DNA of 64,000 nt from Candidatus Parcubacteria bacterium (GTDB taxonomy: Bacteria; Patescibacteriota; Minisyncoccia; Phycocordibacterales; CAIZLB01), in the NCBI GenBank assembly GCA_039795775.1, contig JBDKLC010000006.1, positions 3,772 through 67,771 of the forward strand. Direction: 5' to 3'. Numbering within the stretch: position 1 is the first letter of the stretch; the number at the start of each line of letters is the position of its first letter. Both the position numbers and the translations under genes were made by a program. Under the pieces are notes generated by a model. It worked only from the letters and a program-made list of their open reading frames with translations, searched no databases and had not been told where the DNA came from. Positions 1,551 through 62,731 of this stretch are shown here, in pieces.

Positions 1551-1582
1551 TCCGCGTAGCAATGCTACGCGGATTTTTGTTT
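1551..1582 (+). terminator. Rho-independent terminator (hairpin ccgcgtagca/tgctacgcgg followed by a T-tract)
   Basis: A perfect 10-bp stem, then tttttgttt, immediately after the stop of the 247..1515 gene. Confidence 0.5.
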
Positions 1583-2059: not shown

Positions 2060-2395
2060 TTAGAATAACTTTCCTCCAATCATAGGCTCCCCCTTATCTG
2101 GTGTGATTAAAATAACTTTACCATCTGCGTCGGGAACGCCGAGCGTGAGTACTTCCGATTCGAAAGGACCAACTCGTCGTGGAGGAAAATTGACTACACC
2201 AAGCACGAGTTTGCCCACGAGCTCTTCTTTTGTATACAGAGCTACTATTTGAACTGAAGAATTCTTAATTCCAATCTCCGGACCAAAATCAATCTTCAAT
2301 TTGTATGCCGGTTTCTTTGCTTCAGGAAAATCGTTTACTTCAATAACCTTTCCTGTTCTTATGTCTAATTTCAAAAAGTCTTCAATGGTTGCCAT
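2060..2395 (-). CDS. tRNA-binding domain protein (CsaA/Trbp111/EMAP-like)
   Basis: An 111-aa protein carrying the typical signature DIRTGKVIEV...KPAYKLKIDFG...VQIVA...LVGKLV. Confidence 0.65.
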   Translation of the reverse strand: MATIEDFLKLDIRTGKVIEVNDFPEAKKPAYKLKIDFGPEIGIKNSSVQIVALYTKEELVGKLVLGVVNFPPRRVGPFESEVLTLGVPDADGKVILITPDKGEPMIGGKLF

Positions 2396-2410: not shown

Positions 2411-3184
2411 TTATATATTCTTTCTACAAACAAAAATAAAGCTCGCCGGGACTTTTTCAGCTTTCTGAAAAGAGTAGTATTTTGAAGGGTCATCATGGCC
2501 ACGGCTCATATTCTTTGGGGCTGGCTCATGATAAGCAATGATATCAAATCCAGCATTTCGGAGAAGTTGAAACCACGTTGATGTCTTTCTGTATGTTATA
2601 TGAACAGTCGTTCCCTCTTTTTTCCAATCTTTTCGCACAAGTGGAGTTTCATCATGATACGCATGTGCGACAACATATTTTCCTTCTTCATAACTAACAT
2701 CTGTAAACAGACTGTGGTCCCAACTCCAAATGAATAACCCACCTTTATGTAGATATGAAGCGATATGTCTCAGTGTTGTTTCTGGGTCAGAAGTCCATCC
2801 AAGTGCATACACCGAGAACACAAGATCAACTGTTGGAATAGTTAATTTATCTTCCATTCTTCCTTTTATGAGATGCACTCTACCCTCTTCAATCTCTTTT
2901 TTATTAAAGCGCTCAGCTTCTTTGAGCTGAACTGAAGAAATATCTACACCGTATACAGCACGTGCGCCGTTGTCTGTAAGGTATTTAATAGACCGTCCAC
3001 TTCCGCAACCCACTTCGAGAAAGGTTTTACCCTTTATTTCAGGGATAAGATTGAGGTCATCTCCGATACCAAATGGTCCCCACACCGGCAGAGCGCTTGC
3101 TTCAGTAAAGTGATCGGCTACCGCATCCCATGTTTTTTCGTTTTCTGAGGTGATATTTTGCATAGGTAAATTATAGTACCGCAT
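2411..3184 (-). CDS. Class I SAM-dependent methyltransferase
   Basis: Motif I LEVGCGSGRS, followed by a conserved acidic residue and a motif II-like VDLVFS. Confidence 0.7.
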   Translation of the reverse strand: MRYYNLPMQNITSENEKTWDAVADHFTEASALPVWGPFGIGDDLNLIPEIKGKTFLEVGCGSGRSIKYLTDNGARAVYGVDISSVQLKEAERFNKKEIEEGRVHLIKGRMEDKLTIPTVDLVFSVYALGWTSDPETTLRHIASYLHKGGLFIWSWDHSLFTDVSYEEGKYVVAHAYHDETPLVRKDWKKEGTTVHITYRKTSTWFQLLRNAGFDIIAYHEPAPKNMSRGHDDPSKYYSFQKAEKVPASFIFVCRKNI

Positions 3185-17900: not shown

Positions 17901-20900
17901 AGAAGCTGTAGCAGAAATAATTCCACTTGCGTAAGAATTTTGAATTGTGTTTGTGTTGTTACCGACAATTCCTGCAGCATATGCAATTGCTCCTGCACCT
18001 CCGGCTCCACCGGCACCACCCACGGCTCCTGCACCAACAAATGTTCCTACTGATGCTCCACCGTTTCCACCAATTCCTCCAACCTGAGCAATTCCGGCAA
18101 CTGAAGTTATATTTCCAGTTGAATATGAAGAAGCTTGAATAACACCAGCACTCTGTCCAACAACACCACCTGCTGTTGAAACGGCGCCAGCACCGCCCGC
18201 ACCGGCTGTTGCACCAACACCTCCCGCAAAGTTTGTTCCACCAACACCACCATTTCCTCCGTTACCAGCAGTACCTCCATTACCAGCATCCACAATAATA
18301 TTGCCTGTATTGTAACTTGCAGAAACAGTTCCCAACACGATGTTACCTGCAACACCTCCACCAAAAGCAGCACCGCCAGTTCCTCCAGCAGCTCCTGCTC
18401 CACCTGCACCTCCAGTGTTTGAAGTTCCAGCACCACCATTTCCTCCGTTACCACCAGCTCCACCGTTTCCTCCATAAGCTGTGATAGTACCTGATGAATA
18501 TGAATTTGAAATTTCACCGTTGTTCAAAAAACCAACAACACCTCCAACATATGAAATACCTCCAGTTGATCCAACACTTCCAGCAACTCCTGCAACACCC
18601 GTAGTAAATGAATACCCATCACCACCACTTGCACCTGCACCTCCGGCACCAGATGTACCTGTTACGTCTCCTGTTGAATATGAATTTAAAATAGATGTTC
18701 CTGTATTGTGTCCAACCACACCACCGGCATAAACGATTCCTCCTCCGACAGCAGCTCCTGCTGCACCTCGTGTACCTCCAGTCCAAGCACCTCCAGCACC
18801 TCCCACTCCCGCAGCACCGCCCGCTCCTGCTGTTCCAGTGATTGCACCTGTTGTATGAGAACTATTAATTATAGAAAGAGTGCTGTTACCTGCAATTCCA
18901 CCAATATATAAAATACCTGCAGCCCCTCCGGTACCTCCAGCAAGTCCAGCGAGTCCTGTCTGTGCAGCGACTCCAGTTCCACCTGTTCCACCAGCACCGG
19001 CTTGGCCAGTCACAGCATTTGTAGACGAAGTATTTTGAATTACTCCCGTATTACTTCCAACAAGGCCTCCAGCATATGTAGCAACTACAGCAGCAGATCC
19101 TCCAGTTCCAGATGCACCTCCGGCACCAGATGTACCAGCTGAACCTTTTGCTCCTCCTGCTCCACCTATTCCACCAGTTCCTCCAGCACCACCAGTCACA
19201 GTAACAAGTCCAGTAGTTGAACTTGCAGAAGTAATTATTCCAGAATTTAATCCAACAAGTCCACCCGCATATGCTGCTCCTCCAGCTCCACCGTTTCCTG
19301 CGGCACCTCCAGCACCTCCAGTTCCAGAAGTTGTTAATGCAGCACTACCTCCTGCACCTCCGGCTGTTCCGTTTTTTCCAGCAGAACCTGTAGCAGTAAC
19401 AGCACCCGTTGCATAAACAGTAGATGATGCACCAGTAATAACTCCTGAAATACCATTTTGTCCAACCAATCCTCCGGCGTATGCAATTGCTCCAGCTCCA
19501 CCAGCACCTCCGGCTGCAGTTCCACTTGATGCTGCAACAGCTACTGAAGCTGCTGCTGATGCACCACTTGCGCTACCGGCTGAACCATTACCCGGTGTTC
19601 CACCAAATGCTTGCACAATACCTGTTGCATAACTTCCGTTCAGGATTGTGCCAGAGTTGTTTCCAGCAAGACCTCCGGCATACGCTGTTCCAGCTGCTCC
19701 ACCAGCAGCTCCTAATGCACCAAGCCCACCAATGTTTGCACCTCCGACACCAGTTCCAGCGTTACCTCCGTTACCAGCTGTTCCTGCATTTCCTCCCGCT
19801 CCACCTCTTGCTGTTACATTTCCAGTACTAAAAGAAGTTGAAACTGTTCCCGCTTGAATCCATCCGACAATTCCACCGACATATGCAATGTTACCCGCAC
19901 CGGCGCCTCCGGCTGCACCTCCGGCTCCACCGATACCAGTTCCAACTCCTGCAACAGAACCGTTTCCTCCATTTCCTGCGTTACCACTTGCACCTCCAGC
20001 TCCACCTGTTCCAACAACTGTTGCAGAACTTGTTGCAGTTGTAATACTTCCTTGTTGAGAATATCCGACAACACCTCCAACATATGCAAGACCTCCGGTT
20101 GCAGCAGCGTTGTTTGCCGCCGCTGCACCAGTTCCTCCTGTAGTTGCACCGGTTGTTGTGTTACCTCCGTTTCCACTATTTCCTCCGGCACCTCCTGATC
20201 CTCCTACACCGTTAATAGTTCCGGCAACACTTACATTTGTAATTGTTCCTGTGTTGTATCCAACCAAACCTCCCAAATACAAAGTTGCTCCAGCAGTACC
20301 GGCTCCACCAGCTGTACCACTTGTCGGTGTTGCACCATCTGATCCGTTTGTACCGGTTGTACCAACTGTGCCTGCAGTACTTGTGGCAGAAATAGAAACA
20401 CCAGAGAGAGTTACATCTTTAATAAGGTTTGTAGAATATCCAAAAAGACCGACATAACTCGACGTTGTTGTACTGATATACAAATTATTAATCGCAAAGT
20501 TGTTACCATCAAAAATACCTGCAAATGGAGTTGCGACGTTACCGATTGGATCAAACCCAACACCAGAACTCCAACCACTTGTAGTAGCGGCATCAATATT
20601 GTTATTGAGTTTAAATGAGCTCGACAAGTTTGTCTTCATTCCCTGCAAACCATACACATCAAAAACAATAAATGGATCTGAACTGATTCCAATTCCTGTA
20701 TATCGTCGGAATGTTCCAGCTGTGATAGAAAAACTTCCTGATACTGACAATGTGTTTGTTCCAGGATCAGTGGCAGTAAAAGTCGCCGCAGAAACTTGTG
20801 CATAGTTTCCAGATTGTCCTCCGGAATTTGTAATTGTAAGGTTAGCGTTTTGGAGAATAGTGCCTGTAAAACCATTAATAGTGAGAGAGCCTATAGTTCT

Positions 20901-22175
20901 CGCACTATCTATAGTAGCTGTCACAGCCGCGCCTCCTGATGTAGCATCGAAGAAAACGTTTGTTGTGGCATCAGGCAAGTTACCAGCTCCTGGCGCACCA
21001 CCCGATGTTGCTGCCCAGTGGTTTGCAGCATCAGACCAGTTTCCAGAGCCACCAACCCAATACGCATTTGCTGGTGGGTCAGTAATAAAATCGATATCTA
21101 CATTTCCAATAACTTTTAAATCAAATACGTCTGTCGATGTAGCAAGTCCAGAAAGATTGATTCGATACTTACCGTCCTGGTTAATAGTTGCAAATGTTCC
21201 GACGAGTGTTCCATCGAGTGTATACACTTCTATAGTTGCTGGTAGATTTGCATCCGTTGGTCGTGCATACAATGTTATGTCTCTTGTACTATCAAGTGGT
21301 TGTTCAAAAGTAACACGTACATACTGACCATCTAAAATACTTACATAATTTCCATCGCGCACTCCCACACCTGAGAAAATATCTTCAATACTATTTTTAT
21401 CTGCATCAAGTCGCAATGCATTCGAAATTAAAATAATCTGGAAAGTTTGTGTTGAAAGGTGTGGAACAATCCATGCGAGGTGATCAATATATCCATCACC
21501 ATCTTCATCAGTTGCGACAAACTGAATGTCTTCATTTCCATTGTTCTGCCATTTAATTTTTATCTGACTTTCTTGACCCACTTTAAAAATTTCTGGTATT
21601 TCTGTTTTTACAGGAACATCAGTCAAGTGTGCAATTAAGTCTTGTTCTGGTGTCGACGCAACAACCACAACTTTTCCGGCTGCATTATTTTCTTCTGTGA
21701 TGATTACTGATGATGTTGCAAAACTTGTTGTAGTGGTTGCACTTGTTGAAGTTGTTGAAGTTGACTCAAATGAACCGCCTGCAGTTACCCCATTAGAAAT
21801 AGGTGCAGATGAAGTAGACATTAAAAGTGCACTTTCTGTACTTGTTGAAATATCTTCTGCTGGAGTTGATGTAGAACTTGAAGAACTGTTTTCAGTAGGT
21901 GTCGATGTTGCTGTAGATGTAGAGATATCTCCAGTGTTTTCAGTTGTTGTAACTGGAGTGTCTGACACATCTGAAGTGTCAGAAGTGTCTTCTGCTGGAG
22001 TTGTCGGTTCAGGTACAGAAACAGTGTCAGTCGCTGGTGAAGAAACTTCAGGCACAGTTGCTTCTACGACAGGAGTTGGATCTTCTTCAGCAAATGCGGT
22101 AGAGAAAAAACCGCAAAATATAATTGCTGAGATTAAAAAAACAAATAACTTTTTGCGACGTGTCTGTGCGTGCAT
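5916..22175 (-). CDS. Giant secreted surface fibre/adhesin-like protein (5,419 aa): signal peptide, Ser/Thr/acidic stalk, beta-helix-like N-domain, ~50 GLUG-like Gly-rich repeats, 15 FN3 repeats, unknown beta module, C-terminal dockerin
   Basis: A single uninterrupted ORF. The N-terminus MHAQTRRKKLFVFLISAIIFCGFFSTAFA is a signal peptide. Repeats follow the pattern Y[AV]GG[LIV][VIA]G.N.G.I.NSY[AS]TG.V, spaced by GGAGG/GNGG runs. Fifteen ~90-aa repeats follow the form PDAPT..TAV.GNGQATI.FT.PVSNGGS.I..YTVTSNTGGFTATGG.SPI.ITGL.NG..YTFTV.A.N..GTS. The last ~65 aa read DLNGDCKVNSVDFSIMLAFW...DINRDGKVDSVDFSILLYQW, a duplicated Ca-binding dockerin signature. Confidence 0.85.
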   Translation of the reverse strand: MHAQTRRKKLFVFLISAIIFCGFFSTAFAEEDPTPVVEATVPEVSSPATDTVSVPEPTTPAEDTSDTSDVSDTPVTTTENTGDISTSTATSTPTENSSSSSTSTPAEDISTSTESALLMSTSSAPISNGVTAGGSFESTSTTSTSATTTTSFATSSVIITEENNAAGKVVVVASTPEQDLIAHLTDVPVKTEIPEIFKVGQESQIKIKWQNNGNEDIQFVATDEDGDGYIDHLAWIVPHLSTQTFQIILISNALRLDADKNSIEDIFSGVGVRDGNYVSILDGQYVRVTFEQPLDSTRDITLYARPTDANLPATIEVYTLDGTLVGTFATINQDGKYRINLSGLATSTDVFDLKVIGNVDIDFITDPPANAYWVGGSGNWSDAANHWAATSGGAPGAGNLPDATTNVFFDATSGGAAVTATIDSARTIGSLTINGFTGTILQNANLTITNSGGQSGNYAQVSAATFTATDPGTNTLSVSGSFSITAGTFRRYTGIGISSDPFIVFDVYGLQGMKTNLSSSFKLNNNIDAATTSGWSSGVGFDPIGNVATPFAGIFDGNNFAINNLYISTTTSSYVGLFGYSTNLIKDVTLSGVSISATSTAGTVGTTGTNGSDGATPTSGTAGGAGTAGATLYLGGLVGYNTGTITNVSVAGTINGVGGSGGAGGNSGNGGNTTTGATTGGTGAAAANNAAATGGLAYVGGVVGYSQQGSITTATSSATVVGTGGAGGASGNAGNGGNGSVAGVGTGIGGAGGAAGGAGAGNIAYVGGIVGWIQAGTVSTSFSTGNVTARGGAGGNAGTAGNGGNAGTGVGGANIGGLGALGAAGGAAGTAYAGGLAGNNSGTILNGSYATGIVQAFGGTPGNGSAGSASGASAAASVAVAASSGTAAGGAGGAGAIAYAGGLVGQNGISGVITGASSTVYATGAVTATGSAGKNGTAGGAGGSAALTTSGTGGAGGAAGNGGAGGAAYAGGLVGLNSGIITSASSTTGLVTVTGGAGGTGGIGGAGGAKGSAGTSGAGGASGTGGSAAVVATYAGGLVGSNTGVIQNTSSTNAVTGQAGAGGTGGTGVAAQTGLAGLAGGTGGAAGILYIGGIAGNSTLSIINSSHTTGAITGTAGAGGAAGVGGAGGAWTGGTRGAAGAAVGGGIVYAGGVVGHNTGTSILNSYSTGDVTGTSGAGGAGASGGDGYSFTTGVAGVAGSVGSTGGISYVGGVVGFLNNGEISNSYSSGTITAYGGNGGAGGNGGNGGAGTSNTGGAGGAGAAGGTGGAAFGGGVAGNIVLGTVSASYNTGNIIVDAGNGGTAGNGGNGGVGGTNFAGGVGATAGAGGAGAVSTAGGVVGQSAGVIQASSYSTGNITSVAGIAQVGGIGGNGGASVGTFVGAGAVGGAGGAGGAGAIAYAAGIVGNNTNTIQNSYASGIISATASAGANGGAAGLGGSNATGGSSSTGAAGAAGGAGGAGAVGYAGGIAGLNTAIIINTYIESGAATVIGGNGGAGVNGGAGGTAGTGALGAIGGTGGAGGAGAIGYAGGIIAFNSAGTINNSHSFILASSTSGTSGVGGNGGAAGTGAVGGTGGIGVVGAASYAGGAVGINTGVINNSYATGNAIATGGAGSSNGSGGNGGASSFSAGGAGGAAGAAGTNVGGVAYAGGLIGFNSTNGIIQGASYASGNATSTGGAGANGLAGSSGGSSTGAFSGGTGVAGSAGVSGGVAAAGGLVGFNSGSVASDSYASGSVYANGGAGGNGGVGGNGGASGAGVVGVAGVGGGSGFTGGAAYAGGVIGNDTVLGTTISIPNTTGTVASLGGAGGNGATGGNGGNGGSTAGAIGGVGGAAGAGGNGGLAASGGILGFNAGVIHDVTYTITSITALGGVPGTGGTGGNAGASGNIAAGAGATGGAGGAGGIGGAAYIGGLAGDNSGVIVDSVVIGSLTAVGRNGGNGGVGGVGGNGSLGTGGHAGGIGGAGGAGSSGGAVYIGGLVGQGNGNIQKSSATGGTITVTVGGNGGVGATGGAGGVGGSGSGRNGVGGAGGTGGVVGPVYAGGAIGFSSLVSVLIDTVYSTNNVTVTSGNGGAGGAGVAGVNGAAGSTGGAGGGGGAVGLAVYAGGLEGYNSGAAQNIVNSYATGNITVNGGNGGTGQVGGAGAAAISAVVGGAGGNGGIGGAGGFAYGGGLVGFTNTLVAIASSTASGNVTVVAGNGGNAGNGGAGATGGAGQVGGAGGAGGGAGLGGASYTGGLVGLVTSGDIVNSFSSGTIQGTSGNGGNSGAGGAGGAGGSSVAGTAGTSGTIGAAGGVNFTGGLVGDNTSAILNSYHVGGSVTATSGNGGNGGAGGAGGASGSITNGTAAAGGTGAAGGVGGAVSVGGLVGRNGVTAVSASITNSYATTSVTAVGGNGGAGGVGGAGGDGSLGTNHIGGAGGAGGAGGAAAITLAASVQAGGLVGQNILGTITTSYAQTGTVTATGGNGGAAALGGTGGIGTGSAVYGVGGAGAAGGAGGAVYAGGLVGYTTGVIEAASFSKTSLIVTGGSGVNGSAGISAGANTGAAGSVPGAGGASGIIYAGGLAGYSTADVISSYASFDAGSGKGNITVTGGSAGNGGNAGNGGSGLAAGGVGGAGGLGTAGVGGASSGAFAGGLIGFSSGVITSSYADTLTISGTEQNGGNGGTGGNGGAGVGANNGGVGAVGGAGGAGGIRAFGGLVGDYLSTIGSIQGGSYSTVHISVTGGNGGNGGAGGTGGTSGSGQSSGTAAVAGVGGVGGAGAATYGGGLVGRITGTTQVMQINNSYATGNISVTSGTGGNGGAGGVGGNGSTGSSTHAGATGGLGGVAGVGGEADAGGLVGFSNLTTGSIDYISVYATGFASSTGGNGGTQGTGGNGGASASGAAGGAGGGAVLTPPAGGAAYAGGLIGIHRITTTPAQSDITGSYSTGLVSARGGVGATGNLGGNGGTGGTIGGAGGAGGASGIGGEADAGGLVGLTSVTTGFIHYVNNYSTTGSVTATGGASGNGGSAGTSTAGGAVAAAGGATGASGASAAGGAAYAGGLVGQANATASNNLQITTSYSTRAVNAVGGASGNGANGVIGGAGGTAAIGGVGGAGGASGAGGAAYAGGLIGTNGTAALAGGGIIESVSYATGNVTSTSGNVGTAGTGGAGGASTSGTVTTGAAGGTVGTTGAGGASYAGGLVGINAATGVILNSYATGSVTSLARNGGQGGTGGNGADASLSAGIGGPGATGGAAGAGGDSYAGGLIGYNVNALNTITTSYAVGTTVTGTSGNGGQGGTGGNGGAAGIASTGGAGGSAGAAGAAGTLYVGGLIGRNDGTVQLNSYSTSNVVGTAGTGGTGGTGGNGANGAVGSGGAGANGGLGGAATSGGAGGIGYGGGFIGRNETTRIVKDSYSTGSLTLSGGAGGNGGIAGNGGNGGNGVFAGNGGAGANAGASATGAAGGVKYGGGFTGYNLGTISTVYSVGAVSVTGATGGAGGNGGNGGNGGTGGATGAGGAGGNQGVTADAGNGGALHAGGLIGYNFTAGVVSNSWTAGTVTTVGGNGGAAGVRGTSGTGGNGGTLAGGAGGAAAGGSGGGTGGASIAGGLIGSNISTGSFSNSYASTTVTMTGGNGAAGGTGGKGGSGGVGGSGGSGNGGAGQPGLSGGTGGAGGAVTGGGLVGDNTGTITNAYALGNVTATAGSAGFGGAGGAGGNGGAAGGGIAGANGNGGNGTIGGAGASAFVGGLLGSHATSLVTNAYSAGVPTATKTSGAVGGAGGSAGTGGTGGSNGSTGATGSSGLLQYAGGIVGNPVSGTWASSYWDTTTSGKTDGAGNATTPTNTSGKTTTQMEAQATFTNWDFTTLPIWNIDEAVTYPYFNYQVAPDAPTNIVAVAGNGQATITFTPPANTGGGQILSYTVTSSPGGFTATSGGSPITITGLTNGTTYTFTVTATNANGTSISSATSNAVTPATIPDAPTIGTATGGNGQATITFTPPVSNGGSSILYYTVTSNTGGFTATGGSSPIVVTGLTNGQTYTFTVKATNAAGTSTASATTNSVTPATVPNAPTGVTAVAGNGQATITFTPPVDNGGASISYYTVTSNTGGFTATGGSSPIVVTGLTNGQVYTFTVTATNSAGTSTASSVSNSVTPATVPDAPTGATAVSGNGQATITFTPPVSNGGSAITYYTVSSNTGGFTASGNGSPRTITGLTNGQAYTFTVTATNGVGTSTASTASNSVTPATVPDAPTSITAVRGNGQATISFTAPVSNGGSSILYYTVTSNTGGLTTSGTSSPLIVTGLTNGQAYTFTVTATNAVGTSSASVASNSISPATVPDAPTIGVATAGNGEATVTFTPGASDGYSSVLYYTVSSNTGGFVVHSGASPVVVTGLTNGTTYNFTVTATNAVGTSSPSIASNSVMPVTTPGAPTGVSAVSGNGEATISFTAPVSNGGSAITYYTVTSNTGGFTATGGSSPITITGLTNGTTYTFTVTASNAYGTSTQSATSNSVTPATVAGAPTGVSAVRGNGEATISFTAPVSNGGAAITSYTVTSNIGGFTATGGSSPIVVTGLSNGTTYTFTVTANNAVGTSASSTASNSVTPATVPDAPTSVTAVRGNGEATITFNAPVSNGGSAITSYTVTSNVGGFTATGGSSPITITGLTNGTTYTFTVTATNSVGTSTPSATSNSVTPATVPDAPTSVTAVSGNGQATISFTAPVSNGGSAITYYTVTSNTGGFTATGGNSPITITGLSNGTTYTFTVTASNAVGTSTVSGTSNSVTPATVPDAPTSVSAVSGNGQATITFTPPVSNGGSTILYYTVNSNIGNFSVSGGNSPITITGLSNGTAYIFSVTATNAVGTSSASVASNSVTPATVPDAPTSVTAVSGNGQATISFTAPVSNGGSAITLYTISSNTGGFIATTTTSSAIVSGLSNGTTYTFTVTATNALGTSTASVASNSVTPATAPDAPTSVTAVSGNGQATITFTPPVSNGGSAITSYTVTSNTGGFTASGGSSPITVTGLTNGQAYTFTVTATNALGTSTASVVSNSVTPATVPDAPTNVAATIGDQSAGVTWSVPASNGSAIQYYTVTSNTGGFTATSSTNSIVMNGLTNGVTYTFTVTATNALGTSVSSGSSGGVTPATIPGAPTNLAATVQDSSIDLSWTAPISNGGSALTDYVIEYKLSSGGTWAVFNDGVGTTPATTVTSLSNDNSYDFRISAKNVIGTSTASSIVSATPGAPAQVLIQSFSSLVVPTISTNVRITNEGSIAYEYQYTWCVTDSSSNECGGGDDIFSSTAAKLIQPGANFDTTLNSTVPVAGNYYFHFKVLFGSDSSSANQSFTAVTTTPVTPPTGGTGGSGGGGGGGSSPAPVSIPIPTGMKCAITGADLNGDCKVNSVDFSIMLAFWKTSAPFKNQGVDINRDGKVDSVDFSILLYQWGKTPIAFKKQ
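5919..6130 (-). other. Dockerin module (two calcium-binding repeats) at the C-terminus of the giant protein
   Basis: DxNxDGxVNSxDxxxL appears twice, separated by about 22 aa, with a Gly-rich linker upstream. Confidence 0.6.
6560..10640 (-). repeat. Tandem coding repeat array: 15 fibronectin-III-like units, 270-bp period, high inter-unit nucleotide identity
   Basis: The string ggtgcatcagg(a/c)acagt(g/c)gctggtgt(t/c)ac recurs every 270 bp (about 6826, 7096, 7366 ... 10593). The protein carries 15 in-frame FN3-like units. Confidence 0.8.
10810..20460 (-). repeat. Gly-rich GLUG-like repeat array (~50 units of ~40-60 aa) encoded by GGN-codon-rich DNA
   Basis: About 50 occurrences of the YAGGLVG.N.G.I core are separated by GGAGGAGG/GNGGNGG tracts. 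The plus strand is correspondingly CCN-rich, which generates spurious Pro/Ala ORFs. Confidence 0.75.
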
Positions 22176-27191: not shown

Positions 27192-28094
27192 TTAAAGATT
27201 TTTTTCAGCTTCGATAAATTCGTCTATGTCCCCGTTCAACACTTTATCTATATTTCCTGTCTCCATGTCTGTTCGATGATCTTTGACCATCTTGTATGGG
27301 TGCATGACATACGAACGAATTTGATTTCCCCATTCGATGTCGGTTGTTTTACTAATATACATTCCCTTCTCTTTTGCAGCTCGTTCTTGTTCACGGAGTG
27401 TATAAATTTTTGCTTTCAAAATTGCGAGAGCTTTTTCTTTGTTCTGAGCTTGTGATCGTTCGGCTGTGGCGTGCACTGACAGTTTTGTTGGCTTATGCAC
27501 AATGCGGACGGCTGTCTCACGTTTGTTCACGTTCTGGCCTCCTGGACCTCCGGCTCGCGCAAATGAAATTTCGAGTTCGTCTTCTGGGATCTCAAGATCA
27601 TCCTGTTTTTCAAACTTAGGTACAACTTCTACCATCGAGAATGATGTGTGACGAAGCTGCTTTGAGTTGAATGGAGAAAGTCGTACAAGTCGATGTACAC
27701 CGGATTCATGTTTGAGTGTTCCATACACGTTTTTACCTGACACTTCAAACATAATATTTCGAAAACCACCATGATCATTTTGATGTTCATGAATGATAGC
27801 AGCTCCCCACCCTCGTTTTGCAATGTACTTTGAATACATTTCAAAAAGGATCCGTGAGAAGTCTTCTGAATCATCACCTCCCGCTCCAGAGAAAATAGTG
27901 ATGATAGCTCCTCCTGCATCGTAAGGACCGCCGCCATCCTTGCGTGCTTTAAGCTCCTGAAGTTCTTTGATGGCTGCCTGAGCTGCATCTTTATTATTCC
28001 AAAAATCAGCCTCAAGCATCCGCGCTTCAATTTCCTCGATGCGCTGTTCTATTTCGTTTTTCTTGCCTTCTTTAGGTTCTTGAGTGTCTGTCAT
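27192..28094 (-). CDS. prfB: Peptide chain release factor 2, short form without programmed frameshift
   Basis: The SPF tripeptide (RF2-specific) and GGQ (ARAGGPGGQNVNK) are present. It is a single ORF with its ATG 24 nt after the upstream gene stop. The N-terminal domain is about 65 aa shorter than E. coli RF2. Confidence 0.85.
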   Translation of the reverse strand: MTDTQEPKEGKKNEIEQRIEEIEARMLEADFWNNKDAAQAAIKELQELKARKDGGGPYDAGGAIITIFSGAGGDDSEDFSRILFEMYSKYIAKRGWGAAIIHEHQNDHGGFRNIMFEVSGKNVYGTLKHESGVHRLVRLSPFNSKQLRHTSFSMVEVVPKFEKQDDLEIPEDELEISFARAGGPGGQNVNKRETAVRIVHKPTKLSVHATAERSQAQNKEKALAILKAKIYTLREQERAAKEKGMYISKTTDIEWGNQIRSYVMHPYKMVKDHRTDMETGNIDKVLNGDIDEFIEAEKNL

Positions 28095-39828: not shown

Positions 39829-39842
39829 GGTGAATGGGACTT

Positions 39843-39996
39843 GGTCACAGGTCTCGCCGACATGCGGCTCGCCTGCGACCCCGCCTCCTTCGTAGCAATT
39901 CGCTTCGCTCATATAGCTACTTCAGTCCGGCTTTCAAGTCCCTGTATCAACTCGTAGAAAATTAAAAGACCGAGCAGAAGCTCGATCTTTTAATTT
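39843..39996 (-). repeat. tRNA-associated ~200-bp element, copy 2. It ends in a 17-nt duplicate of the tRNA-Asp 3' end (AAGTCCCATTCACCGCG) preceded by CCTGTGACC and the conserved core.
   Basis: Core ggtcacaggtctcgcCgacatgcGgctcgcctgcgaccccgcctcctt. Two of the three differences from copy 1 are compensatory within a GC(A/C)G...C(T/G)GC stem. It shares tccggctttc and a post-tRNA hairpin with copy 1. Confidence 0.5.
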
Positions 39997-54464: not shown

Positions 54465-55526
54465 TTACAAAAGTCTTTCCAAAATCTTTGGGTTGAGTGA
54501 ATGCTGGTATGCGTTTTCAATCGTGATTTCTCCCTTTCGAACGAGTTCTGCGAGTGATCGGTTCATATCAATCATACCTTCCTGAAGACCTGTTTCGATT
54601 ACAGTGTTGATTTCGTGAGTTCGCTTTTCTCGAATGAGGTTTGCTACCGCACTATTTGCGATAAGAAGTTCGTATGCAGGAATCATACCGCCTGAAATTC
54701 GAGGGATGAGTCGCTGTGAGAAGATACCAGTAAGAGAACTGGCAAGCTGAATTCGAATCTGATCTTGCTGGTTTGCTGGGAAGGAGTCGATGATTCGGTC
54801 GATAGTCTGGGCAGCGTTGTTTGTGTGGAGTGTTGAGAATACCAAGTGACCTGTTTCAGCAGCTGTTACAGCCGCTGACATTGTTTCGTGTCCTCGCATT
54901 TCCCCTACCAAAAGTACGTTTACGTCTTGTCGGAATACAGCAAGAAGACCTGCTGAAAAATCTTCTGTGTCGAGTCGTACTTCTCGCTGGTCGATGATTG
55001 CTTTCTTTTGTTCGTATACGTATTCGATAGGATCTTCAATTGTAATGATGTGCTCAGCTCGTTCCCGGTTGATGAGTTCAATCATGGCAGCAAGAGTTGT
55101 TGTCTTACCCATTCCCACTGGACCTACTACGAGGAAAAAGCCTTGCGACTTTCGTGCGAATGTCTCAAGAATTGGTGGAAGGTTGAGTTCTTCCATAGTT
55201 TTGATTTGCTTTGGGATAAGTCGGAGAACCGCACTTGGAAGACCTTGCTGATAAAATGCGTTACCTCGGAATCGAGCCTCAGATTTGTGTTCGTATGAAA
55301 AGTCTACTTCTTTCTTGTCTTTGAATCGTGCTGAATTTTTTTCACCAAGAAGAATTTCGAGATACTGATGAAGTGTCTCTGTGTCGAGAATATCTCGTTT
55401 TACGAGTGGAATAAGTGAACCTGATACACGGATATATGGATGTCGCCCTTCAGATAAGTGAAGATCTGATCCACCTTCTCGAATAACAATACTAAGTAAT
55501 TCTTCTAGTTGTGATTTGTAATCCAT
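54465..55526 (-). CDS. pilT: Type IV pilus retraction ATPase PilT
   Basis: 353 aa. GSDLHLSEGRHPYIRVSG, Walker A GPVGMGKTTT, and Asp/His boxes. Confidence 0.85.
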   Translation of the reverse strand: MDYKSQLEELLSIVIREGGSDLHLSEGRHPYIRVSGSLIPLVKRDILDTETLHQYLEILLGEKNSARFKDKKEVDFSYEHKSEARFRGNAFYQQGLPSAVLRLIPKQIKTMEELNLPPILETFARKSQGFFLVVGPVGMGKTTTLAAMIELINRERAEHIITIEDPIEYVYEQKKAIIDQREVRLDTEDFSAGLLAVFRQDVNVLLVGEMRGHETMSAAVTAAETGHLVFSTLHTNNAAQTIDRIIDSFPANQQDQIRIQLASSLTGIFSQRLIPRISGGMIPAYELLIANSAVANLIREKRTHEINTVIETGLQEGMIDMNRSLAELVRKGEITIENAYQHSLNPKILERLL

Positions 55527-55543
55527 ACGTTTTTTATTAGATC

Positions 55544-55936
55544 CTATTTCTTATTTTTAAGCATTCGAAGAACTTCTGAAACTACTTCTGACGGGATAGT
55601 TGTTGCTTTTACAATATATCCATCAATTCCGAGTCGTTTTGCTTTATCAATATCTGATGACTGACCCTGATTACTCAATATGAGTACTCGCGCCTCTTTT
55701 GCTAAATTTTCTTGTCTCATCTTTTCGAGTACCTCTAGACCATCCATTACGGGCATAACAATGTCGAGTACGATAGCGTCTGGTACAAATCCCCCTTCGA
55801 GTTTTGTTATGGCTTCGGCTCCATCGGAAGCTGTAGTTACAGCAAAATTCTCTTTTTGAAATTTGAGAGAGTACATGTTGAGAAGAAACTTATCATCGTC
55901 AACAATTAAAATTTTGTAAGGAATATCGCCGTTCAT
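55544..55936 (-). CDS. Stand-alone CheY-like response-regulator receiver (PilH/PilG-like)
   Basis: ILIVDDD...D57 equivalent in VLDIVMPVMDG...LSNQG...K. 130 aa with no output domain. Confidence 0.75.
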   Translation of the reverse strand: MNGDIPYKILIVDDDKFLLNMYSLKFQKENFAVTTASDGAEAITKLEGGFVPDAIVLDIVMPVMDGLEVLEKMRQENLAKEARVLILSNQGQSSDIDKAKRLGIDGYIVKATTIPSEVVSEVLRMLKNKK

Positions 55937-55960
55937 AATATGTGTAAATTATATCACAAG

Positions 55961-57679
55961 CTACACTTTATTCACTTCTTCGTATGGGATTTCTTTTCGA
56001 AGCGCTCTTATAATTGCATCTTCTTTCATTGTAATCATTCCCTTCTTTCGAAGATGCTCACTGATAGCGATTTCTGTTGCACCTGAGAGAATAATTTTTT
56101 CGAGTTCTTTGTCCATTTTGAACATTTCAAATACAGCCTGTCGTCCCTTTGTGCCCTTAGGACTTTCAGGAGTTGGGTTGATTCGATATACCTCGTCTGA
56201 TGTAGGAATTTCTGATTTAAATTCTTCTGGCAAATCTGCAAACTGCTTATCTATCATTATCTTGATACTGCCATCGATCTTTTCAGCTTTTACGGCAGGT
56301 GTATATGCTTTACCTACAAGTCGCTGAGCCATACCGAGAATGAGTGTAGGAGCAATAAGATACGGGTCGATGCCCATGTCGATAAGTCGTGGAACAATAC
56401 CTACAGAACTGTTGGTGTGGATTGTTGAAAATACCAAGTGACCTGTAAGAGCGGCTTGGATAGCCAACTGCGCAGTTTCTTTATCTCGAATTTCCCCCAC
56501 CATGATTACGTCAGGGTCCTGTCGGAGAGTTGTTCGAAGACCGGTAGCAAATGTATATCCAATTTCTGGATGTACCTGTGACTGACTCATACCTTCGATG
56601 TTGTATTCCACCGGGTCTTCAAGAGAAAGTACGTTCTGTTCTTCTCGATCAACTTCGTTGATCATTGAATACAATGTTGTTGTCTTTCCAGAACCTGTAG
56701 GACCTGAAATAAGAATGAGGCCATATGGTCGGTCGATGGCTTCGAGCACCATTTTGAGTGACCGTGGAGACATACCGAGCTCGGCGAGCTTCTGTACACC
56801 TTTTTGCTGATCAAGAATTCGCATTACCACTTTTTCTCCGTAGTATGTTGGGAATGTAGAAACTCGGAAGTCGATTTTTCGTCCTTCAATTCGTGCAGAA
56901 AATCGTCCGTCTTGAGGCTTTCGTTTTTCGTCGAGCTTCATGTTACAGAGAATTTTTATTCGAGCCACTACAGCATCATGTACTTTTGCTGGGAGTATAA
57001 GACTTGTATTAAGAACTCCATCCACTCGGAATCGTACTCGCACTCGCTCTCGCATTGCTTCGATGTGCACGTCAGATGCTTCTCCTTCGATAGCATATCG
57101 GAGAATAGTTGCTACGATTTTTGTAACTGGAGCATCTTCTATAATATTTGCAGTCCCCTGTTTTTGTGTTGTGAGTTCTTCGTCTCGAGTAAGTTCTACA
57201 TCGTCAGCAGAAAATTCACTTTCAAGGTCTGTGAGCGCTTTACTTACTTCTCCCGTAAGACCCTTATACATATTAATGATTCGTTCGAAATCATCTTCTG
57301 TAATTAAAAATACTTTAAAAGGAAGATTTATTTTAGCTGAAATAAAGTTCAACGCATCTCGCGCTTCAATGTTGTCTGGATCTACGAGGCCTACTTCGAG
57401 AACTCCATCTACCACTCCTAAAGGAGCAAACTTATAGTGAGTCGCCGATTCTTCTGGAATATATTTAAGAATTTCAAAAGGAATATCTTTGTCCCCTACT
57501 GACTTTGTAGGAATATGAAGATATTCGCCTTTTGCTTTTATGATGACTTGTGCTGCAATTCCACGATCTCGTAATACCTCTTCAACAGTTTTCCCAGAGG
57601 TCTGAGCTTCCTGAGAAATAAATTCCACATCATCTTTTGTAATTATGTCTTGTTGAGCAAGAATATTGAGAAAACTCAT
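55961..57679 (-). CDS. pilB: Type IV pilus assembly ATPase PilB (GspE family)
   Basis: 572 aa. An N-terminal GspE_N domain and Walker A GPTGSGKTTT. Confidence 0.85.
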   Translation of the reverse strand: MSFLNILAQQDIITKDDVEFISQEAQTSGKTVEEVLRDRGIAAQVIIKAKGEYLHIPTKSVGDKDIPFEILKYIPEESATHYKFAPLGVVDGVLEVGLVDPDNIEARDALNFISAKINLPFKVFLITEDDFERIINMYKGLTGEVSKALTDLESEFSADDVELTRDEELTTQKQGTANIIEDAPVTKIVATILRYAIEGEASDVHIEAMRERVRVRFRVDGVLNTSLILPAKVHDAVVARIKILCNMKLDEKRKPQDGRFSARIEGRKIDFRVSTFPTYYGEKVVMRILDQQKGVQKLAELGMSPRSLKMVLEAIDRPYGLILISGPTGSGKTTTLYSMINEVDREEQNVLSLEDPVEYNIEGMSQSQVHPEIGYTFATGLRTTLRQDPDVIMVGEIRDKETAQLAIQAALTGHLVFSTIHTNSSVGIVPRLIDMGIDPYLIAPTLILGMAQRLVGKAYTPAVKAEKIDGSIKIMIDKQFADLPEEFKSEIPTSDEVYRINPTPESPKGTKGRQAVFEMFKMDKELEKIILSGATEIAISEHLRKKGMITMKEDAIIRALRKEIPYEEVNKV

Positions 57680-57691
57680 GTAGTATTTATA

Positions 57692-58129
57692 TTATCTTGG
57701 TCTAGTTGTTCGACTTGTTGATGCTGTAGTTGTTCCTTGAGCGCTAATAGTAAATCCGTTTGTAGAAGAACCACTTGCTGATACTTCTGTATCATTCTGA
57801 CCTAGTGGAGCAAATGGGTTTGGTCGACCTGCTGGTTGTGGAATAAGTTCTCGACTGAAGTCTACAAGACTAAGGTATGCCGGGTCAGAAAAGATATCTA
57901 CATTGAATCGAATATTTTGAATGGCCAAAAGTTGATTAACGAATTCTCGTCCAGGACCTTCACTCGCAGATGTATTACCTCCTGTACTTGCTGTCTGTGA
58001 TGTTCGAACAAGTGCATTCGAACTTGTTGCGCTCGATGCTGGCATAAATTTTGTGTATGCAAGAAAAGCAATAACAACAAGTATCACGATGAGAATCAAG
58101 TATTTAAATTTTGAAAGTGTTGCCATCAT
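57692..58129 (-). CDS. Pilus-biogenesis-associated membrane protein (PilP-like?)
   Basis: 145 aa. An N-terminal TM, a Ser/Thr linker, and a C-terminal NPFAP motif. Call is by position. Confidence 0.3.
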   Translation of the reverse strand: MMATLSKFKYLILIVILVVIAFLAYTKFMPASSATSSNALVRTSQTASTGGNTSASEGPGREFVNQLLAIQNIRFNVDIFSDPAYLSLVDFSRELIPQPAGRPNPFAPLGQNDTEVSASGSSTNGFTISAQGTTTASTSRTTRPR

Positions 58130-58130
58130 G

Positions 58131-58667
58131 TTATTTGAGCCAATAAGTTTGTAATGTCACACCAAAATCGTACTTTCCATCTCGTGTTGATGCAAAAGAA
58201 AGTGATGTTACATCTACCAATCGGAGACTACTTTCCAAATCTCGAAGGAACGCAAGGAAGTTGTCGTATCCTGTGTTGATTGTAAAAGCCAATGAAATAG
58301 AGCCGAACTTATTGCCGTCTGGACCAAGGCCGTCTCCTCTGTTTGTAGACCCTTCGTTGATTCGAGTGTTTTTAATATTTACACCATATTTTGCTGCGAT
58401 GTTGTTGATATCGATAATGAGACCGACATTTTCAACGCCATCAGGAAGAAGCTTCTTTACCTTCTGGATATCAATTTCTGAAATCTGGTTTCGTTCCTGT
58501 GTGAGAGTTTCTCGCACCGCTCGAAGCTGGGCAGCTTTTTTGTTGGCTTCTTGAATTTTCTTTTGCTCGTTATCTTTGAGCTTTGTAGCCTGATACTGCG
58601 GATTAGTAAATCCAATGAATAATCCGACTGATGCCAATATGAAGATGATAGGTAAAAAGAGTCTCAT
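58131..58667 (-). CDS. pilO: PilO-like pilus assembly protein
   Basis: An N-terminal TM, then a coiled-coil and a C-terminal domain. Call is by position in the pilMNO order. Confidence 0.45.
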   Translation of the reverse strand: MRLFLPIIFILASVGLFIGFTNPQYQATKLKDNEQKKIQEANKKAAQLRAVRETLTQERNQISEIDIQKVKKLLPDGVENVGLIIDINNIAAKYGVNIKNTRINEGSTNRGDGLGPDGNKFGSISLAFTINTGYDNFLAFLRDLESSLRLVDVTSLSFASTRDGKYDFGVTLQTYWLK

Positions 58668-58668
58668 A

Positions 58669-59298
58669 TTATTGTGTTGGTTGAATAGTTCCTGGGATAG
58701 CTGCTCCTCTATCCTTTATTGATTTGTAATATGACACGAGAGTTGGATCAACTGATGCTGAAAAACTGAATGTGACGTTACCACTCTGGTCGAGATTCAA
58801 ATCACCAAAAATAGGACTTCGGAATACGTTTCGAAGAGAAGGATCAGTAAAGGCTCGTGACTGGAGAGCAACTGTTTCATAACTTGTAGCCTGTCCTTTC
58901 ATAGACATAGTTACTTTTCCTCCTCCAGCATTTACGAAGCTAAAGTCATTGAATCGAACATTTTTGAGGGTTGTTCCAGAAAGCACTGTAAATACATTTG
59001 AAACAGCAACGTGCTGTTTGAGAAGTACATCTACAGAAGAGATTCTATCGTTGAGACGTGTGAGTTCTTGGATAGTTGTAGGATCAAAAGCATTTTCATT
59101 TCGTTCAAGCTGCTTCTTCCCTTCTGAAATAGATGTATCAACATACTGACCATAAAGAAATACTCCTCCACCTGCTGCCAAGCTAGCAATCAATACGATA
59201 AATGAAATTACAAACAACAAACCTGAGCCCGAAGAATGTCGGACTGAGTCAGTAACTGGTTGTTTTGGTATGAACGATGTTTGGAACTTTGTTTCCAT
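58669..59298 (-). CDS. pilN: PilN-like pilus assembly protein
   Basis: A short cytoplasmic N-tail, a TM, then a coiled coil. It follows pilM. Confidence 0.45.
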   Translation of the reverse strand: METKFQTSFIPKQPVTDSVRHSSGSGLLFVISFIVLIASLAAGGGVFLYGQYVDTSISEGKKQLERNENAFDPTTIQELTRLNDRISSVDVLLKQHVAVSNVFTVLSGTTLKNVRFNDFSFVNAGGGKVTMSMKGQATSYETVALQSRAFTDPSLRNVFRSPIFGDLNLDQSGNVTFSFSASVDPTLVSYYKSIKDRGAAIPGTIQPTQ

Positions 59299-59378
59299 GA
59301 ATTTTGTACAACACTAGTATATCACTTTCTTATCACAGCATTCAACACAATTATGCTAGGTTTTCCACTCTTTTGGAA

Positions 59379-60506
59379 TTATCCGAGTTCTTGGAGCTTT
59401 CGGAGTGCAACTCCAATAGCAACAGCGAACTCCAAGCCTGTAGCAAGAAGCACGTCTTCGAGGAATGCTGGTGTTTCTACTTTTGCAAACGGATTTCCGA
59501 TCTCAACTTCTGTTTGGAAGTTTGCTCGAGCAAGTTCCACTACCCCTTTCATGGCCACTCCACCTCCGGTGAGAATTACTTTACTGATAGTTTTATTAAA
59601 TTTCTTTTGATAGTTGAGGAATACACTGTTTGCTTCTGAGAAAATAAAATCAAGTGTGAGAGAAATAATTTCGTATACGTCTTTTTCATTTGCAACTTTA
59701 CCTGTACCAAGTTCTCGCTTGATTTGTTCTGCTCGCTCGAATGGAATATTCAAGCCTTTTGAAATACTGATCGTGATATCCTGTGAACCTTTGTTGATAA
59801 CGTGTGAATACTTTACTACACCTCGCTCGAGTACATAGAGTTTTGTAGAAGATGCACCAAGGTCAAATACCATCACCGGTGTAGTTTCACCAGAAAGGAG
59901 CGCACGTGTAGCACTAAACATTTCAATTTCAAAGAATGTTGTTTTGAGTTCGGCTAACTTCACAATAGATGTGTAATTACTAAGAATCTCGTTATGAATA
60001 GAAACCACAAGTACTTGGAGTTTTTGTTTTGCCAAAATGTCTGCCTGTTTCTTTTCGTCTTCATTTTCGACGAAGTCCAGTGCGGAGTCAGATTCATTTG
60101 GTACTACCCACCAGTCCAGTGTTACTTCACTAATTGGTACTGGAATATACTTTCGGGCTTCAAGAGGGATCATTTCCTGGAGCTGTTTGTCAGACACCTT
60201 AGGCATATCGATGAGCGATACGAGACTTGATCGGAATGGAATAGACATTCCACTTGATGTAGATGTTACGTTTGATTCTTTGAGAACATCTTTGATAGCT
60301 TCTGCAATTTTTTCAGGAGGCAAGTTTGTGACTTGGCCAACGACAAAATTTCCATAGGGACCAAGGGCAAGTTCACCATATGTTTCGAGGACAGCTCGCC
60401 CCTTCTTCTTGCGCAGCTGAACAACCTTGATTGATGATGCCCCTATGTCTATTCCTATTACGCTTTCATCCATTTTCTTGAAAATATTTTGAAAAAAATT
60501 TGCCAT
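59379..60506 (-). CDS. pilM: Type IV pilus assembly protein PilM (actin-like ATPase fold)
   Basis: From MANFFQNIFKK: VIGIDIGASSIKVVQL, and a PilM/FtsA-like fold. The ORF track extends 81 codons further upstream, which is probably not translated. Confidence 0.7.
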   Translation of the reverse strand: MANFFQNIFKKMDESVIGIDIGASSIKVVQLRKKKGRAVLETYGELALGPYGNFVVGQVTNLPPEKIAEAIKDVLKESNVTSTSSGMSIPFRSSLVSLIDMPKVSDKQLQEMIPLEARKYIPVPISEVTLDWWVVPNESDSALDFVENEDEKKQADILAKQKLQVLVVSIHNEILSNYTSIVKLAELKTTFFEIEMFSATRALLSGETTPVMVFDLGASSTKLYVLERGVVKYSHVINKGSQDITISISKGLNIPFERAEQIKRELGTGKVANEKDVYEIISLTLDFIFSEANSVFLNYQKKFNKTISKVILTGGGVAMKGVVELARANFQTEVEIGNPFAKVETPAFLEDVLLATGLEFAVAIGVALRKLQELG

Positions 60507-60555
60507 GACATCTCTAGAATGCAGTTCATCATTAGTATATACCACCAATGACATA

Positions 60556-61281
60556 ATGAGAATACGATTTTTCCAACATATCCTACATATCAAAGAGTAC
60601 ATTGAGACTCTCTTGTTTGGTGTACCACGCCATTCAAAAACAAAAATACCTATATATAAGGTATGCCCACGAGAGCGTTTGCGACACCACAGTGATACAT
60701 ATATATGTACGTCCTCACCAAAAACCCTACCTACTACGGTACAGAGCATACTTCCCTATCAACACGAAGAGGTGAAACAAACATTGTGGGCCTTCAAATA
60801 TACTAACGATATAACAGCCACATTGTATCTTGCTGAAATGATGTGCGATGAACTTATAGACTATTTTTCCTCACGAATACTTCATTCGTTTAATTTTCCT
60901 ATCGCCTATATTTTTACTATTCCTTCATCTTCTTTTCATAATGGAGAACGCAATTGGGACCAGATGTGTAAGCTCATGCAGATGATGAAGCGATTTCCTG
61001 AATGCAAAAACTTTTTTGCTCAGTATGAAAAAGCTTTTGCACCTTTGCCTATTTCACATTCGTCTGTCGCTGCACAGCACACTCTCAACCGTTCTCTGCG
61101 TATAGCTTCTGCTTCACAGAGATTTAGCCTCTCTGACATATCAACGCTGGGTCAACATGCACACATCATCATTCTTGATGACGTCACCACAACAGGCTCA
61201 ACTCTCGCATATGCAAAACATCTCTGTACAGAAGTGAGCAGAGATGTGAGCCATATTCATTGTTTTGCTATCGCACACTAA
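60556..61281 (+). CDS. comF: ComF-family phosphoribosyltransferase-domain protein
   Basis: C-terminal PRTase motif HIIILDDVTTTGSTL. It is divergent from pilM. The start was chosen at MRIRFF (the ORF-track start at 60505 would overlap the pilM start). Confidence 0.55.
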   Translation: MRIRFFQHILHIKEYIETLLFGVPRHSKTKIPIYKVCPRERLRHHSDTYICTSSPKTLPTTVQSILPYQHEEVKQTLWAFKYTNDITATLYLAEMMCDELIDYFSSRILHSFNFPIAYIFTIPSSSFHNGERNWDQMCKLMQMMKRFPECKNFFAQYEKAFAPLPISHSSVAAQHTLNRSLRIASASQRFSLSDISTLGQHAHIIILDDVTTTGSTLAYAKHLCTEVSRDVSHIHCFAIAH

Positions 61282-62375: not shown

Positions 62376-62468
<93 letters not shown>

Positions 62469-62641
62469 GTCTGTGCAAGGTTCGTTCACGAACCTGAACA
62501 GACATATAGGATTGTGGGGATTCGAAAGCCGGAACGAATTGCCAATGTCGCAACAGCGACTGGCACAAGTGAGGCGGGGTCGCACAAAATTTCTGTAAGA
62601 AATTTATGTGTGACCGAATCCTTTGTTACAATAAAATATAC

Positions 62642-62731
62642 GGAGGAATGGATGAGTGGTTTAAATCAACGGTTTACTAAACCGTCGAGCCTTAATTGGC
62701 TCCGTGAGTTCGAATCTCACTTCCTCCGCCA
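62642..62731 (+). tRNA. Type II (Ser-like, G73) tRNA with anticodon loop UUACUAA, i.e. anticodon ACU in standard numbering
   Basis: GGAGGAATGGATGAGTGGTTTAAATCAACGGTTTACTAAACCGTCGAGCCTTAATTGGCTCCGTGAGTTCGAATCTCACTTCCTCCGCCA. Every stem pairs: 3-bp D, 5-bp anticodon ACGGT/ACCGT, variable GAGCC/GGCTC, T GTGAG/CTCAC. CCA encoded. Confidence 0.6.

Follow-up and report, generated by a model that had tools for sequence, protein, structure and literature searches.

A tRNA-Ser(ACU) gene in a Parcubacteria genome belongs to a conserved family of CPR bacteria with counterparts in phages

In a 64,000 nt stretch of a Candidatus Parcubacteria assembly (GenBank assembly GCA_039795775.1, contig JBDKLC010000006.1, positions 3772 to 67771; referred to here as the window), a gene for tRNA-Ser(GCU) is followed by a second serine tRNA gene in which the anticodon reads ACU. 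The locus raises the question of whether an A at position 34 of this anticodon is genuine and, if so, what such a tRNA does in the codon box that is split between Ser and Arg. In a review, A34 is described as "universally missing" from this box (PMC8007984), "non-native" is the term used by Cui et al. for the ACU anticodon (PMC6158751), and unmodified A34 tRNAs are called "exceedingly rare" by Schmitt et al. (PMC11066159). In a full-text search of the open literature, no account of tRNA-Ser(ACU) as a natural tRNA of bacteria or phages was found. Genes of this kind are already present in public records, where they are annotated as plain tRNA-Ser.

ARAGORN, which had been named as a check in the original prediction of a canonical serine-type tRNA with an ACU anticodon, detected seven tRNA genes across the window. 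Its final two calls, both on the forward strand, were tRNA-Ser(gct) (coordinates 62376 to 62467; Rfam score 50.9 bits) and tRNA-Ser(act) (coordinates 62642 to 62731). Positions 62642 to 62728 of the latter matched the Rfam tRNA family (RF00005) with 56.2 bits (E value 7.6e-11), well above the gathering score of 29. In the Rfam alignment, the anticodon loop is UUACUAA, and by direct reading this loop (TTACTAA) occupies positions 62674 to 62680, with A34-C35-T36 at positions 62676 to 62678. Another loop register had been raised as an outcome that would speak against the assignment, but neither ARAGORN nor Rfam gave one, and the two agree on ACU.

Direct reading of the sequence also revealed a complete set of stems, comprising a 7 bp acceptor stem (GGAGGAA/TTCCTCC), a 3 bp D stem, a 5 bp anticodon stem (ACGGT/ACCGT) and a 5 bp T stem (GTGAG/CTCAC). 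The variable arm (coordinates 62687 to 62702) has a 5 bp stem and a 6 nt loop, which makes this a class II tRNA. An encoded CCA (62729 to 62731) follows G73 (62728), and G73 is conserved in at least 90% of the family alignment described below. G73 is the discriminator in tRNA-Ser, whereas tRNA-Leu and tRNA-Tyr have A73. The single-sequence fold of the window tRNA has an energy of -32.5 kcal/mol (z = -4.0), and none of 200 shuffled sequences was as stable. The ARAGORN call, the Rfam score, the stems and the fold thus all confirm the predicted identity. As an independent metagenome assembly (L002, JGI 3300049847) contains a base-for-base identical tRNA, A34 is not an assembly error. A weak sigma-70-like promoter match (GTGACC-16-TAAAAT; coordinates 62610 to 62637, forward strand) ends 5 nt 5' of the tRNA, but is treated as a hint only because the promoter scan gave 1 site where 1.3 were expected by chance.

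The ACU gene starts 174 nt 3' of the GCU gene, and the original prediction had considered that it might be a recent duplicate of this neighbour carrying a G34A change, possibly a pseudogene. A decaying or non-functional copy could have arisen in this way or be a remnant derived from a phage, and such a reading would fit both the adjoining GCU gene and the general view that A34 is disallowed in the Ser-Arg codon box (PMC8007984). However, just 54 of 92 aligned positions are identical between the tRNAs encoded by the two genes, and their acceptor stems, anticodon stems and T stems differ. The standard bacterial decoder of AGY, tRNA-Ser(GCU), shares with tRNA-Ser(ACU) the class II build, G73, the amino acid, the codon box and the loop context U32 U33 N34 C35 U36 A37 A38, but in CPR genomes the two coexist on different backbones. 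Among the matches listed in the search described below, mean identity was 0.77 between ACU tRNAs and 0.59 between an ACU tRNA and the GCU gene of the same locus. For each of 120 ACU tRNAs compared (119 from GTDB loci and that of the window), the nearest neighbour among the matches listed was another ACU tRNA rather than the local GCU gene. A GCU gene was located less than 1 kb from the ACU gene in 54 of the 120 loci listed, with 36 of these pairs divergently oriented and 18 sharing a strand.

Relatives of the gene were sought by scanning 185,579 GTDB species-representative genomes with a generic class II ACU pattern (D-loop GAGYGGTNNAA, anticodon loop YTACTAA, T-loop GTTCRAATC), which gave at least 120 matches. 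tRNA-Ser(act) was called by ARAGORN in 119 of the 120 loci listed, and in the remaining one the gene is cut by the edge of the locus. By record title, the loci listed are overwhelmingly from Patescibacteria/CPR, and the groups represented include Saccharibacteria, Paceibacterota, Nomura-, Magasanik-, Taylor- and Adlerbacteria, Pacebacteria and Minisyncoccia. The CPR ACU family as defined here has the anticodon arm N-C-R-G-U UUACUAA A-C-Y-G-N, the D-loop GAGYGGUNNAA and an acceptor stem starting with GGA. The window tRNA fits this consensus, sharing 94% identity with its relative in L019 and a mean identity of 0.82 with the GTDB members listed.

The anticodon arm of the family is almost invariant, with covariation at 27:43 and 29:41, and the anticodon loop is invariant in 96 CPR members, though most of the loop was fixed by the search pattern itself. 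When these 96 distinct CPR sequences were aligned, 99.0% of cells in the cloverleaf were paired, and compensatory changes were found in 17 of the 25 cloverleaf pairs (452 compensatory cells in all), with the variable-arm helix covarying at all five of its pairs. None of 500 shuffles reached these pairing or covariation values, and pairing fell to 30-57% in controls in which the register of the alignment was shifted. The pairing and covariation therefore indicate a functional tRNA that has been under long-term purifying selection.

A pair of Ser tRNA genes is linked to a type IV pilus cluster (pilM, pilN/O, pilB, pilT and pilC) in many CPR genomes. In the window, the cluster (coordinates 54465 to 60749) is linked to the Ser tRNA pair (62376 to 62731). 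The genes pilM, pilO, pilB and pilT accompany the ACU gene in at least nine of the loci found (L040, L102, L034, L008, L099, L003, L084, L118 and L067), and ARAGORN called the act anticodon in every one, indicating that syntenic orthologous loci keep A34. Orthologues with G34, a finding that had been expected to count against the assignment, were not seen at the pil-linked loci. The window also carries genes for RF2, GatA, LigA and FtsEX, so that its gene content is cellular rather than that of a phage. Among the CPR loci, tRNA-Ile(UAU) (called as tat) recurs in L008, L029, L042 and L046, and tRNA-Arg(GCG) in L035, L064 and L117. Both of these tRNAs are unusual for bacteria.

The view that the ACU gene is a decaying copy is hence highly improbable, and it is already refuted as far as sequence evolution can show. 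It is opposed by the conservation of the family over more than 96 distinct sequences, in which 99% pairing is combined with compensatory changes, by the invariant anticodon loop, by the retained synteny and by the occurrence of the same sequence in two metagenomes. The suggestion of a recent duplicate or pseudogene is likewise unsupported given the limited identity to the neighbouring gene, the separate clustering of ACU tRNAs, the covariation and the intact stems. The reading favoured here, to which a probability of roughly 0.6 is assigned, is that the gene encodes a functional serine isoacceptor of an old CPR-wide family, usually located near tRNA-Ser(GCU) yet distinct from it.

The 174 nt spacer between the two Ser tRNA genes was found to be highly structured (z of -5 to -6). 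A hairpin (coordinates 62468 to 62504, forward strand) was predicted by folding directly 3' of the GCU tRNA, and at the aligned position three relatives (L019, L025 and L071) have a GC hairpin followed by a T-run terminator. The hairpin is followed by an RNA element of ~120 nt that forms a three-way junction (coordinates 62510 to 62629, forward strand), is closed by GGGATTCG/CGAATCCC and ends 12 nt 5' of the ACU tRNA. This element, which takes up most of the spacer, scored 88.8 bits with R1, a covariance model built from eight copies, and a second copy in the window (coordinates 39829 to 39949, reverse strand) is 47 nt downstream of tRNA-Asp.

The R1 model identified 39 copies of this element in the CPR loci that were fetched (including L003, L019, L035, L049, L064, L071, L141 and L142), and 30 of these are located 40-75 nt downstream of a tRNA gene on the same strand, the tRNAs being of various specificities. 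Members of the family span ~80-170 nt and form a three-way junction; one G-U pair is invariant, and the ends are conserved (GGATTCGAAAG...GTGACCGAATCC). Pairing in the junction amounted to 88.8% over 31 copies, and compensatory changes were seen in 21 of its 25 pairs. These values were not reached by any of 500 shuffles, though an alignment fitted to the model favours structure. No match to the element was found in Rfam at E <= 1, and none was detected with R1 in the 26 viral loci searched. Judged from its sequence, the element is an undescribed structured RNA that follows tRNA genes in CPR bacteria.

Metagenome contigs were also scanned with a pattern taken from the D-loop and anticodon arm of the ACU family, in which position 34 was free. 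Among the matches listed (at least 120), position 34 was A in 90 and G in 30. Those G34 genes that could be called by ARAGORN, 24 among the matches listed, were each the sole GCU gene of the locus, whereas a separate GCU gene was present in 46 of 86 A34 loci among the matches listed. The companion tRNAs in the G34 loci are non-CPR in type (Ile-GAU, Arg-ACG), and the D-loop is slightly different. AT-rich metagenomic bacteria outside the CPR (a subset of L123-L242, e.g. L127, L139, L147 and L188) carry these GCU Ser tRNAs with the backbone of the ACU family. Outside the region covered by the pattern, the G34 genes share 0.62 identity with the ACU family versus 0.51 with the companion GCU genes of CPR, and the closer relationship to the ACU family hints at the origin of the ACU lineage. 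Plausibly, the ACU family descends from a GCU-type tRNA via an old G34A change and has since been kept as a second gene.

A few MAGs assigned to the PVC group were also found to carry tRNA-Ser(ACU), namely L005 and L116 (Verrucomicrobia) and L006, L021 and L098 (Planctomycetes), as does a MAG labelled 'Chitinophaga' (L121). One identical ACU tRNA sequence is present in L006, L098 and L121, and that in L021 is one base off, although the phylum label of L121 differs from that of the other three. The layout of neighbouring ORFs is also similar in L006, L098 and L121, which have a GC content of 58-60%. The Planctomycetes loci have a chromosomal look with 58-60% GC, and a PHROGs scan of the ORFs near non-CPR ACU genes identified one Verrucomicrobiota locus with tail-like and Hoc-like domains. 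The shared tRNA sequence and ORF layout suggest either real PVC chromosomal genes combined with misbinning or a shared mobile element, and some of the PVC-labelled contigs are probably misbinned or mislabelled.

As A34 in tRNAs usually becomes I34 (PMC11066159), the possible formation of inosine, which had been raised in the original prediction, was considered. If A34 were deaminated by TadA or another deaminase, the resulting tRNA-Ser(ICU) would read AGU and AGC and, weakly, AGA. The U33, A34 and C35 of the window tRNA agree with the loop of a TadA substrate, and both the encoded A34 and the U33-A34-C35 context are shared with the tRNA-Arg(ACG)/TadA system. In addition, the window encodes a CDA-fold deaminase (154 aa; coordinates 1581 to 2045, reverse strand), with the gene for a Trbp111/CsaA-like tRNA-binding protein (111 aa; coordinates 2060 to 2395, reverse strand) directly upstream. 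The gene adjoining that for the tRNA-binding protein (coordinates 2411 to 3184, reverse strand) encodes a class I methyltransferase with a weak match to the CmoB family (PF08003).

However, the TadA substrate loop is U33 A34 C35 G36, and the window tRNA has U36 in place of the G36 of tRNA-Arg(ACG). It also serves a split box in which I34 would miscode, turning AGA, an Arg codon used 6-11 times per 1000 codons in these genomes, into Ser. The CDA-fold protein, the sole one encoded within the 64 kb and ~9 kb of flanking sequence, gave no match to a TadA model. It is RibD-deaminase-like (HAE...PC-x13-C), its family is small (40 proteins, from Parcubacteria and Nostoc), and two homologous loci do not preserve the adjacency to the gene for the tRNA-binding protein. 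On these grounds it was rejected as a candidate A34 deaminase, with nothing found to connect it to tRNA-Ser(ACU). CPR bacteria appear to be without tRNA-Arg(ACG), with GCG, UCG and CCG serving instead (Shulgina and Eddy, PMC8629427), and both the finding of tRNA-Arg(gcg) in related CPR loci and the predominance of CGA among the Arg codons of the window agree with that report. An I34 system is therefore unexpected in CPR.

Experimental data from E. coli bear on the same issue. In the available portion of Schmitt et al. 2024 (PMC11066159), inosine is reported in three of 15 A34 tRNAs tested, and the inosine-positive tRNAs named there are ACG, AAG and, from earlier work, AUG, with ACU not among them. 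In the same study, an orthogonal tRNA with the ACU anticodon read AGU in vivo (9.4%) and AGG slightly (0.36%), whereas AGC and AGA were below detection, a pattern that differs from that expected for I34. Given the U36, the reported state of tRNA-Arg in CPR and the miscoding of AGA in a split box, conversion of A34 to inosine is quite improbable. Extra A34 tRNAs (Leu-AAG and Thr-AGU) are also carried by Leuconostocaceae/Oenococcus, and in these A34 is genomically encoded, as it is in tRNA-Ser(ACU).

SerRS recognises the variable arm and G73 without reading the anticodon, and tRNA-Ser(ACU) should therefore be charged with serine through its long variable arm and G73. If A34 remains unmodified, it would form a Watson-Crick pair with the U of AGU, and tRNA-Ser(ACU) would act as a dedicated AGU decoder working alongside tRNA-Ser(GCU). 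The two differ in having A34 or G34, and the ACU tRNA would be expected to read AGU only, with AGC excluded. Hence, tRNA-Ser(GCU) would still be needed for AGC, and AGA and AGG would be read by tRNA-Arg. A role as a dedicated Watson-Crick decoder of AGU with an unmodified A34 is the most likely one on this analysis.

Engineered ACU tRNAs have the same anticodon and are AGU-selective, as in the E. coli experiment above, and tRNAPyl(ACU) reads AGU better in vitro than its own GCU variant (PMC6158751). However, those tRNAs have artificial bodies (M. jannaschii Tyr and Pyl) and were studied in E. coli systems, whereas the window tRNA is encoded by a natural gene. The earlier proposal of a genuine AGU-specialised isoacceptor is the reading best supported by the conservation in CPR, by A34 at syntenic loci and by the in vivo data of PMC11066159, though the specialisation itself is predicted from this analysis.

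A comparison of AGU and AGC usage, also proposed as a check, gave a result that was positive for the window but not for CPR loci as a whole. The AGT:AGC ratio in the window is 353:74, and the U-fraction is 0.76-0.81 for AGY versus 0.52-0.72 for the other two-codon boxes. This codon table is biased because a giant Thr/Gly/Ser/Ala-rich ORF of 5419 aa (coordinates 5916 to 22175, reverse strand) supplies 29% of the codons. In these AT3-rich CPR genomes, most AGY codons are AGU. However, when ~105 CPR loci were pooled, the U-fraction of AGY was 0.68 versus 0.67 for the other two-codon Y boxes, so codon usage carries no tRNA-specific signature beyond the general AT3 bias, and this parity means that codon usage alone fails to explain the retention of ACU genes in CPR and phages. 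To our knowledge, many AT-rich bacteria do without tRNA-Ser(ACU).

Among the 566 Arg codons of the window, CGA dominates (287) and AGG is very rare (8). The window PilT, aligned to PDB 2ewv, has a single AGA codon, at R351 opposite an R, and its four AGT codons fall at variable sites, so that this alignment says little about whether AGA keeps its Arg meaning. The window ORFs read cleanly in translation table 11 with 87% of the sequence coding, and RF2 is present, such that nothing suggests a changed code. Stop codons of 47 window ORFs are TAA (33), TAG (13) and TGA (1). The RF2 gene (coordinates 27192 to 28094, reverse strand; 300 aa), which includes the SPF motif, is missing the usual N-terminal part. 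A prfB programmed frameshift was considered for this gene but is absent, the ORF being simply short at the N-terminus.

The family is also well represented among viruses. The generic ACU pattern matched at least 120 IMG/VR contigs (L243-L362), and ARAGORN called tRNA-Ser(act) in all 120 of those listed. In many of them the gene is part of a tRNA array, with as many as 27 genes per array, and tRNA-Ser(gct) was called just twice in the loci listed. The viral ACU tRNAs listed share a mean identity of 0.67 among themselves and are thus more diverse than the CPR family; identity is 0.67 to the CPR ACU family versus 0.56 to GCU tRNAs. BLAST matches in cultured phages were mostly to tRNA-Ser(UGA), and Ralstonia phage RP13 (GenBank accession number LC554890.1; L366, coordinates 1494 to 1583) was found to carry a tRNA-Ser(act) gene annotated as plain tRNA-Ser. 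In contrast to the genes in phage tRNA arrays, the window gene is in a cellular context, has a GCU partner and comes with a copy of the CPR tRNA-trailer element, which was absent from the 26 viral loci searched.

The abundance of the ACU family in phages hints at a selective reason beyond simple codon supply. The ACU variant might be kept as a resistant back-up decoder that escapes an agent aimed at tRNA-Ser(GCU), such as a toxin or anticodon nuclease deployed by hosts, by competitors or by defence systems. This would explain the occurrence of the gene in both episymbiotic CPR bacteria and phages, and is in keeping with its frequent location in viral tRNA arrays where gct genes are scarce, with its presence in the cultured phage RP13 and with the lack of an AGU-specific excess in pooled CPR codon usage. 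Phage tRNAs have also been proposed to evade anticodon nucleases via changes in the anticodon loop (PMC10264068). However, the case is purely circumstantial, as a nuclease specific for the GCU anticodon was not identified in this analysis, and CPR genomes retain the GCU gene beside the ACU gene. Evasion would also leave AGU translation in place as the molecular activity of the tRNA. As an account of the gene, evasion is unlikely, though its distribution in phages means that a defence-evasion rationale stays in play beside the preferred reading of a functional CPR serine isoacceptor.

A natural parallel is tRNA-Thr(AGU) of Mycoplasma capricolum, which has an unmodified A34 (cited in PMC11066159) and is, like tRNA-Ser(ACU), a natural bacterial A34 tRNA from a lineage with reduced genomes. 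However, the Mycoplasma tRNA belongs to Mollicutes only and serves a four-codon box in which broad reading is harmless, replacing the G34 and other isoacceptors. In contrast, tRNA-Ser(ACU) serves a split Ser/Arg box, is found beside a G34 isoacceptor and extends across a superphylum and phages. To judge from the sequences compared here, it is an ordinary tRNA-Ser body with an anticodon thought to be disallowed, conserved lineage-wide in CPR and common to phages.

A more far-reaching view, which is held only tentatively and is rather doubtful, is that this is a near-universal isoacceptor of Patescibacteria that is also found in phages, with either a genuine A34 or a novel modification of A34, that offers something a G34 tRNA cannot. 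The benefit could be resistance to anticodon nucleases, or some feature of decoding linked to the unusual translation apparatus of CPR bacteria.

The occurrence of the ACU family in at least 120 species-level genomes, mostly CPR, and in at least 120 phage contigs contradicts the description of A34 as "universally missing". If the more far-reaching view above is true, this would be the first lineage-wide natural anticodon starting with A in a split codon box, against the rule that ANN anticodons are universally missing there. The family is relevant to annotation and to codon models for CPR and phage genomes. It would also provide a natural system for asking how a genuine A34 decodes, why A34 is otherwise avoided, and how accuracy in a split box is achieved without inosine or G34. 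Cultured, genetically tractable Saccharibacteria put these questions within direct experimental reach.
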